DNA of 64,000 nucleotides from a virus (IMGVR_UViG_3300028888_000078:1-64000); one strand, 5' to 3'; positions 15,488-16,021 are shown, counted from the stretch's first letter. The notes: generated from the sequence alone by a model not told the origin. Program-made: numbers and translations.

Positions 15488-15584
15488 GAACGTTTTGACC
15501 GATCATCATGACGTTCTGCAACAAGAATCTTAGCGTGTCCTAGAATAAGCTGTTGGACGAGGGGTTCGAGTCCCTCCAGGTCCA
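15488..15584 (+). ncRNA. ssrA: Permuted tmRNA, acceptor piece (3' half of the tRNA-like domain)
   Basis: GCTGTT-GGAC-GAGGGGTTCGAGTCCCTC-CAGGTCC-A; pairs with the downstream GGGCCTG including G3.U70; 5' boundary uncertain. Confidence 0.8.
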
Positions 15585-15781
15585 CTACATATTAGGATTT
15601 ACAGGTCAAAGAGAAGACGGATAATTGTGTAAATAATAGAGGTTTAATAGCTCTACAATACAAAACAAGGTTAAATAGCAAGTAACACCGTAAATGCGAA
15701 ATGGTTAGAGAGTAATCTCGGTAAGCCTTAAATATGGTAAGGTACCTTTGAGTGAAGAACACGATCCTAATATTTTTATAC

Positions 15782-15925
15782 GGGCCTGACTGGATTTGAC
15801 AGCAGTGGAAAGTAAGACATTAAGCGCTTTGATATAAATCTAAACGGCGATTATAATATCGTTGACTACACGGGCCTCAAGGAGGCAGCGTGAAGTCGGT
15901 GCGTACTACCTAAACGCGAACGTTT
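15782..15925 (+). ncRNA. ssrA: Permuted tmRNA, coding piece; predicted tag (A)GDYNIVDYTGLKEAA
   Basis: GGGCCTGACTGGATTTGACAGC tmRNA-type 5' end; tag ORF 15846-15893 ends in Ala-Ala-stop; 3' boundary uncertain. Confidence 0.82.
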
Positions 15926-15948
15926 GAGGGTGTTCCGATAACCCCAAA

Positions 15949-16021
15949 GAGTGAGTTAACTCAACTGGTAAGAGTTCAGATGCTGTCTGAAGACGTGGGT
16001 TCGACTCCCACACTCACTCCA
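15949..16021 (+). tRNA. Atypical tRNA or tRNA-like RNA, anticodon undetermined
   Basis: Good acceptor, D and T arms; anticodon arm TCAGA-TGCTG-TCTGA has a 5-nt loop (or GCU if the register shifts). Confidence 0.6.

Follow-up and report, generated by a model that had tools for sequence, protein, structure and literature searches.

The window, the 64,000-nt stretch of DNA analysed here, forms the beginning (64 kb) of a virus genome of 103,414 bp that CheckV rates as 99% complete; the closest named relatives of the phage are crAss-like phages of the family Suoliviridae (faeces of pig, macaque and human). On its plus strand the window carries the parts of a transfer-messenger RNA (tmRNA) in permuted order: an acceptor piece comes first, an intervening segment follows, and the coding piece with its tag reading frame lies downstream, succeeded by a tRNA-like element (Table 1). 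A sequence-only reading had proposed a circularly permuted, two-piece tmRNA at this place, and every element that it named was found where it had put it: the T-arm and the 3′ acceptor strand CAGGTCC-A ending at 15584, the 5′ acceptor strand GGGCCTG with the ACTGGATTTGAC motif starting at 15782, the 7-bp acceptor stem with a G3.U70 pair that these two strands form, and the frame from GGC to TGA at 15846-15893 that encodes GDYNIVDYTGLKEAA. An independent ARAGORN search also places a permuted tmRNA (tmRNA*) here, at 15495-15984, and gives it the identical tag.

Table 1. Features of the permuted tmRNA locus, in window coordinates.
Feature	Position	Strand	Content or basis
Upstream hairpin	15488..15516	+	loop CCGAUCA; RNAcofold recovers the hairpin
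Acceptor piece core	15527..15584	+	3′ strands of P2, GGAC, T-arm, acceptor strand, discriminator
3′ strands of P2	P2d 15527-29; P2c 15532-35; P2b 15536-39; P2a 15549-54	+	internal loop between P2b and P2a; GGAC follows P2a
T stem	15559-63 with 15572-76	+	extra G at 15564
3′ acceptor strand and discriminator	15577-83; A15584	+
Intervening segment (197 nt)	15585..15781	+	presumably removed during maturation
Coding piece, 5′ part	15782..15845	+	acceptor strand, D-loop analogue, P2a-d, leader
5′ acceptor strand	15782-88	+	followed by D-loop analogue ACUGGAUUUGAC
P2a and P2b, 5′ strands	P2a 15801-06; P2b 15816-19; bulge UUAAG 15820-24	+	internal loop GGAAAGUAA between P2a and P2b
P2c and P2d, 5′ strands	P2c 15825-28; P2d 15831-33	+	followed by a 12-nt single-stranded leader up to the resume codon
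Tag frame	15846..15893	+	resume codon GGC, 15 codons (GDYNIVDYTGLKEAA), stop TGA 15891-93; ARAGORN
Tag hairpin (first six codons)	15846-51 with 15858-63	+	covariation
H5-like helix	outer 15864-67 with 15894-97; inner 15874-78 with 15882-86	+	holds the 3′ half of the tag and the stop
H-type pseudoknot 3′ of the tag	15898..15916 (S1 15898-901 with 15907-10; S2 15902-04 with 15914-16)	+	S1 GGUG with UACC
Coding-piece 3′ tail	15917..15949	+	small window-specific hairpin, not conserved in relatives
tRNA-like element after the coding piece	15950..16020	+	ARAGORN; Rfam tRNA 48 bits

Covariance models recover the gene with varying success. Rfam at its gathering threshold finds no tmRNA within the window, and the E-value mode is required: RF04321 (tmRNA_permuted) then matches 15536-15893 with 40.9 bits (E 1.2e-6; gathering score 47). 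The long spacer and an extra G in the T-arm lower this score, and the same model gives 53.7-71.1 bits in seven relatives, above the gathering score, as well as 50.3 bits in cr53_1 (above) and 40.3 bits in cr60_1 (below). The best lineage-specific model, beta_tmRNA, reaches 19.8 bits against a gathering score of 84 and covers the tRNA-like domain only, while the alpha and cyano models (of RF01849, RF01850 and RF01851) were not among the E-value-mode matches listed for the window. Support for the identity of the gene as a permuted tmRNA comes from several sides: the alanine identity elements, the T-arm, the conserved tag frame and the 50-71 bits that relatives score with RF04321.

The tRNA-like domain has both a T-arm loop of the TTCRANY class and a 7-bp acceptor stem built from the two termini. 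In a 25-sequence alignment of related loci the T stem is 99% paired, with compensatory changes at four of its five pairs, and the acceptor stem is 94% paired, with four compensatory pairs. CCA is not encoded after A15584, where CTA stands instead, and must therefore be added. At 15559-15564 the window reads GAGGGG and all 24 relatives read GAGGG, leaving the window copy with either a bulge or a T loop of 8 nt. The extra G at 15564 could reflect a sequencing error in the homopolymer or be a mild defect. Upstream of the acceptor piece lies a hairpin that is probably its 5′ part or leader. Read from the sequences, the stem of this hairpin covaries in most relatives (GAACG/CGUUC, GGUAU/AUACC, UGUUCUGA/UCGGAACA) around an unchanged CYGAUCA loop, and a conserved GCCUUAAAU precedes the hairpin; in some relatives another hairpin takes this position.

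The spacer between the two pieces ranges from 16 to 197 nt across 25 loci, that of the window being the longest. The possibility that the window's spacer is itself a structured or conserved RNA was rejected: its folding z is only -1.62, nothing in the phage collection matches it, and it cannot be aligned to its counterpart in the nearest relative (L011). Its forward strand holds no ORF of at least 40 aa. One relative has a 59-codon ORF in its tmRNA spacer (L005:4444-4623, plus strand), with no Pfam or PHROG match.

The two pieces are also joined by the P2 helices, and here the sequence-only reading was right in part. Of the P2-like helix that it had drawn, the GACA/UGUC pairing and P2a hold; the TTAAG/CTTAG pairing finds no support in the relatives and was rejected, since three of them (L001 with CGUA/UACG, L030 with CACU/AGUG and L032 with UGCU/AGCA) favour a bulged UUAAG. 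This UUAAG is a conserved bulge among the relatives, and the pairing that replaces the rejected helix consists of CGCU/AGCG (P2c) and GAU/AUC (P2d). The further suggestion that pseudoknot 1 (PK1) is absent and the tmRNA minimal is borne out: only 12 nt separate P2d from the resume codon, which lies at nt 65 of the coding piece as against nt 94-97 in the sampled Bacteroidales host tmRNAs and so leaves no room for PK1, yet one pseudoknot is present 3′ of the tag. A substitute PK1 in which the UUAAG bulge would pair with UUAA of the leader was rejected on reading the alignment, as there are no compensating changes and the pairing is broken in the window itself. With neither PK1 nor a covarying substitute, the molecule has one pseudoknot rather than four and a total length of about 230-270 nt. 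PK1 is important in E. coli tmRNA and is typical of bacterial tmRNAs, though not universal among them.

The tag is conserved in more than 25 loci as [GD][NDK]x[NK](N)[IVL][AVI]DYT..., and the differences in its length are whole residues. ARAGORN calls tmRNA* in most relatives, with tags of the form G[ND]xN[IV][AV]DYTGL[KQ]EAA; in genera further removed the form is [GD]N(V)xN(N)[IV]VDYT[HN]VA. The hairpin formed by the first codons covaries through synonymous change, with the pairings GAT-ATC, AAT-ATT and AAC-GTT. The end of the tag is more variable (KEAA in the window; QEAA, HVA, NVA, RLAA and GIAA in relatives), such that the terminal A is kept and the Leu at -3 is not, compared with the canonical ...ALAA. 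With an end of ...KEAA rather than ...ALAA, degron behaviour is uncertain; the tag is unlike the ...YALAA of the host, and the fate of tagged proteins may therefore differ. In the pseudoknot downstream of the tag, pairing in S1 reaches 98%, and two loci (L029 and L032) show a compensatory AGUG/UACU; the S2 stems, read from the sequences, vary among loci and are complementary in every one.

The element that follows the coding piece is called by ARAGORN as a tRNA-Ser(GCU), without a long variable arm. Seventeen of the 25 loci have an element at the same position with a perfect, covarying 7-bp acceptor stem (AGUGAGU/ACUCACU, AAUGAGU/ACUCAUU, GGUGAGG/CCUCACC or GCGUCUU/AAGACGC, for example) and a T-arm. 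These elements have a central domain of just 14-49 nt, no conserved anticodon and a tail of CCAA or CCUA, and in three loci a true tRNA-Met takes their place. The tRNA-like element is probably an RNase P processing signal that would set the 3′ end of the coding piece.

The comparison behind these statements began from a 19-nt pattern taken from the tag end, which led to 26 IMG/VR contigs, and from BLAST, which led to six RefSeq crAss records; an anchoring script returned 25 loci with the tag-end motif, and manual addition brought in four more distant RefSeq loci. Viral contigs were also scanned with a looser 17-nt pattern, which gave mainly chance matches and gained a few new tags. All 25 anchored loci have the order acceptor piece, spacer, coding piece, and more than 25 independent Suoliviridae contigs share it. 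The sequence-only reading had named an assembly artefact as one way in which its proposal could fail; this is excluded because the order is conserved across many independent assemblies. The GGG.../...TCC-A arrangement with G3.U70 is intact in 25 of 25 anchored loci (the constancy of A73 is by construction, because the anchoring script required it), and the G.U column counts 24 of 25 on the MAFFT alignment because one locus (L029) is misaligned there.

Covariation was measured on that alignment (25 sequences, 464 columns), with 49 pairs in nine helices specified. These helices are 90.6% paired, versus 36-49% when the partners are slid by 1-3 columns; compensatory changes occur at 24 pairs, versus 12.3 +/- 2.0 in 500 shuffles (0 of 500 reach 24), and the covariation score is 0.282, versus 0.120. 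Misalignment of P2a and H5 by MAFFT in some rows makes these figures conservative. The acceptor, T, P2a-d, tag-hairpin and pseudoknot helices all covary. Unconstrained cofolding of the two presumed mature pieces (RNAcofold) recovered the acceptor stem, P2a-d, the tag hairpin, H5 and the 3′ hairpin, with the two-piece dimer favoured by 15.1 kcal/mol over the separate monomers. The permuted form is present in at least two subfamilies of Suoliviridae (Oafivirinae and Loutivirinae), so the rearrangement is old within the family. Taken with the evidence on descent given below, the locus is very probably a genuine ssrA gene, circularly permuted, conserved in Suoliviridae crAss-like phages and descended from the one-piece tmRNA of a Bacteroidales host.

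Some relatives have an additional interruption. In three loci a group I intron in the T-arm divides the permuted tmRNA gene further (L005:3540-4430 and L018:7040-7950 on the plus strand, L004:5900-7310 on the minus strand), with RF00028 scores of 86.8, 81.6 and 65.9 bits, respectively, and a fragment (L028:1-260, plus strand) holds only the split T-arm. The intron join in L005 reads GAGGGT-intron-TCGAATCCCTC, and L004 uses a different site, GAGGGTTCGAAT-intron-CCCTC. Inside the L005 intron is an antisense ORF of 209 aa with matches (2e-23) in PHROG to endonuclease, EndoVII and HNH families. The window has a group I intron of its own at 437-684 on the minus strand (RF00028, 72.5 bits), which is unrelated to the tmRNA gene. 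A class of permuted tmRNAs with introns does not appear in the tmRNA database paper (PMC11915505).

Where the gene came from can be asked of its tRNA-like and mRNA-like parts separately. An exact match to the first 22 nt of the coding piece (GGGCYTGACTGGATTTGACAGC, from 15782) is present in 100 of 185,579 scanned species genomes, nearly all of them Bacteroides, Phocaeicola, Prevotella, Mediterranea, Paludibacteraceae or other Bacteroidales, and the few matches in Firmicutes-labelled bins are ordinary Bacteroidales-type one-piece tmRNAs. Four contigs from bins labelled Lachnospiraceae, Coprobacillus, Roseburia or "bacterium" (L204, L208, L221 and L168) have such a Bacteroidales-type one-piece tmRNA, three of the four with the tag GENNYALAA or GETNYALAA; mis-binning is the probable explanation. 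The statement in the sequence-only reading that Bacteroidota tmRNAs are one-piece is true of all 19 Bacteroidales tmRNAs that ARAGORN called, including every sampled carrier of the 22-mer. The resume codon lies at nt 94-97 in 18 of these 19 one-piece tmRNAs (394-400 nt), with L221 given a different frame.

The phage gene resembles the Bacteroidales one-piece tmRNA closely in its 5′ tRNA-like domain (identical over the 22 nt) and in its 3′ tRNA-like domain (two positions differ from Bacteroides sp. GD17, L080). Both kinds of gene have UUUGAC rather than UUCGAC, a ..UUAACU GGC resume context and a Gly-first tag. The Bacteroidales compared were Bacteroides, Phocaeicola, Prevotella/Segatella and Parabacteroides; the phage's tRNA-like domain and resume context are near-identical to those of Bacteroides/Phocaeicola. 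The two differ in architecture: the host gene measures 394-400 nt, has the standard order and encodes a 9-residue tag, typically GENNYALAA or GETNYALAA, whereas the phage gene is permuted, lacks PK1, has a single pseudoknot and encodes a tag of 12-15 residues with a DYT core. Since the tRNA-like and the mRNA-like parts are both Bacteroidales-type, they point to a host-type one-piece tmRNA as the ancestor, rather than to any two-piece lineage (alpha, beta or cyanobacterial). The independent permutation that had been proposed from the sequence is supported by the exact match of the 22 nt to Bacteroidales-type tmRNA genes alone, by the close 3′ domain and resume context, and by the beta model's 19.8 bits against its gathering score of 84; it is likely that the Suoliviridae permuted tmRNA arose independently from a one-piece host gene.

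Two-piece tmRNAs are reportedly found in Alphaproteobacteria (Caulobacter; Keiler et al. 2000) and are said to occur also in a betaproteobacterial group and in some Cyanobacteria (Sharkady and Williams 2004). The alpha, beta and cyano forms (RF01849, RF01850 and RF01851, merged in RF04321) resemble the crAss form in having the acceptor piece upstream and in being joined by the acceptor stem and P2; so far as is known, these three lineages keep PK1. The crAss form differs from them: it fits none of the lineage models, its tRNA-like domain and resume context are Bacteroidales-type, and it is without PK1. Pseudoknots have been lost and the RNA is smaller in jakobid mitochondrial tmRNA (RF02544) and in the mycobacteriophage DS6A molecule too, but the crAss form keeps a full tag frame, the H5-like helix and one pseudoknot. 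Two-piece tmRNAs are also present in marine and aquatic phages (OM43 phage Melnitz, pelagimyophages and cyanophages), where a permuted ssrA lies near tRNA genes, its function is predicted, and the genes group in phylogeny with alpha, gamma/beta or cyanobacterial two-piece lineages (PMC9004378). The crAss host lineage is one-piece, and the permutation is therefore specific to the phage lineage, unlike that of the marine and aquatic phages.

The gene class itself had been annotated before, and its novelty was overstated in the sequence-only reading. RefSeq labels homologous crAss features "transfer-messenger RNA, SsrA" (the annotated relatives, all Suoliviridae, are cr273_1 (NC_055904), cr272_1, cr130_1, cr124_1, cr7_1, cr131_1, cr60_1 and cr53_1), and in Table S1 of Buchholz et al. 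(2022; PMC9004378) 13 CrAssphage records carry the ARAGORN label "Permuted", on which the text does not comment. A full-text literature search found no paper discussing the crAss tmRNA, its structure or its origin, and the window gene is best seen as a new member of an annotated but undescribed lineage. It shares with the annotated crAss tmRNAs the permuted order, the site upstream of a sigma-factor gene, the ...DYT... core and the helices, and it differs from them in its spacer (the longest, at 197 nt), its extra T-arm G and its full-size tRNA-like element. The 2025 tmRNA database paper included RefSeq viruses and recognises alpha, beta and cyano as the only permuted subtypes, with introns as a separate form; the Bacteroidota row of its Supplementary Table 2 counts 48 permuted tmRNAs (18 alpha, 23 beta, 7 cyano) (PMC11915505). 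Given that the best lineage model for the window is "beta", some of those 48 may be crAss-like phage contigs that were binned with their hosts and assigned to whichever model lay nearest.

A working tmRNA needs partner proteins, and these would have to come from the host. Six-frame searches of the 103-kb phage genome found no SmpB (PF01668; the Bacteroides thetaiotaomicron control genome was positive), no CCA-adding enzyme and no tyrosine integrase, and host factors are therefore needed. The host-like tRNA-like domain suggests that host SmpB would be the one used. Ten neighbouring ORFs searched against Pfam matched no family, save for a weak metallophosphoesterase match, and a scan for sigma-70 promoters and terminators was uninformative, as is expected with Bacteroidota-type or phage promoters.

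The arrangement of these parts suggests how processing, charging and tagging could proceed. A single precursor would run from the upstream leader through the acceptor and coding pieces, with the spacer between them, to the tRNA-like element. Host RNase P would cleave it before G15782 and probably also before the tRNA-like element at 15950, and the acceptor piece would be completed at A15584 by host 3′ trimming and the host CCA-adding enzyme. The acceptor stem (7 bp) and P2a-d (about 18 bp) would keep the two resulting RNAs together, and the joined RNA would be charged by host AlaRS through G3.U70 and A73. Host SmpB and EF-Tu would then bring the charged RNA to ribosomes stalled on broken messages, where translation would resume at GGC 15846, add (A)GDYNIVDYTGLKEAA and stop at UGA 15891. 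The likely benefit to the phage would be a ribosome pool kept free during takeover.

A more specific role, suggested by the sequence-only reading, is one in which the functional tmRNA has a job tied to TAG-to-Gln recoding: it would rescue ribosomes stalling or aborting at in-frame UAG codons while suppressor tRNA and release factor compete. This would refine the explanation preferred here and does not exclude it. A BLAST search with the window's suppressor tRNA against the genomes of five relatives gave one clear match only, and whole genomes were then run in ARAGORN. The tmRNA and a tRNA(CUA) were both present in four of four genomes (G000, cr273_1, cr130_1 and cr124_1), and in the same four, reading TAG as sense gives the most or nearly the most gain, with the summed length of long ORFs roughly doubled or tripled. 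Two further genomes (cr53_1 and cr60_1) have a tmRNA match together with a likely suppressor tRNA, annotated as tRNA-Gln and about 80% identical to the window's, and the four tags of relatives that were found by BLAST (and not by the stop-constrained pattern) end in TGA or TAA, not TAG. All six genomes belong to one family, however, so their co-occurrence may reflect shared ancestry and is no test of a link to UAG reassignment. Moreover, tmRNA acts on ribosomes at message ends and not directly at internal stop codons, and phage tmRNAs are common too in phages not reported as recoded (PMC9004378). The recoding role is accordingly rated as unlikely. Similarly improbable, taken as a whole, is the joint proposal of a separate, phage-born permuted tmRNA lineage that came from a one-piece Bacteroidales host gene, is without PK1, acquired a tag of its own as well as a tRNA-like signal for 3′ processing, and is coupled to the TAG-to-Gln switch, clearing ribosomes that stall or abort at UAG or on degraded host messages and labelling the products with a tag that differs from the host's.

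Alternatively, the RNA could act mainly as a decoy that soaks up host SmpB or AlaRS and so blocks host trans-translation, the tag frame being irrelevant. The tRNA-like domain is almost identical to that of the host and the phage has no SmpB, as such a role would have it, and there is a precedent in the mycobacteriophage DS6A molecule, which is little more than a tRNA-like domain and has been proposed to be a decoy (PMC4131195). But two subfamilies share the tag frame, the resume context, the H5-like helix and the pseudoknot downstream, with length differences in whole codons and synonymous or compensatory changes, and a pure decoy could do without these features; the conserved tag frame in particular argues against a pure SmpB decoy, which we consider very unlikely. 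Mobile elements often carry 3′ ssrA fragments and the window copy scores under the Rfam gathering score (40.9 versus 47), but a non-functional remnant, an attachment-site mimic made of captured host ssrA pieces (attP, for instance) or an ARAGORN false positive is scarcely credible, being effectively refuted by the covariation of the two halves, both present, with each other in 25 loci whose order is the same in many assemblies, and the attP or integration version was rejected for want of a tyrosine integrase in the phage genome.

The preferred reading, a genuine permuted ssrA gene of host-type descent, has consequences for how such genes are found and classified. The Rfam gathering threshold misses the window copy, and the current tmRNA classes (alpha, beta and cyano, with introns apart) have no place for the crAss lineage or for its intron-bearing relatives. 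The compact RNA would lend itself to Bacteroides genetics and offers a natural case of a tmRNA without PK1 and with a single pseudoknot. Because its tRNA-like domain matches the tmRNA of Bacteroides/Phocaeicola, the gene also gives a hint as to which host this uncultured phage group infects. If the reading is true, these phages would represent a further independent lineage of two-piece tmRNA, phage-born from a one-piece host gene, and would imply that permutation of tmRNA is evolutionarily easy.
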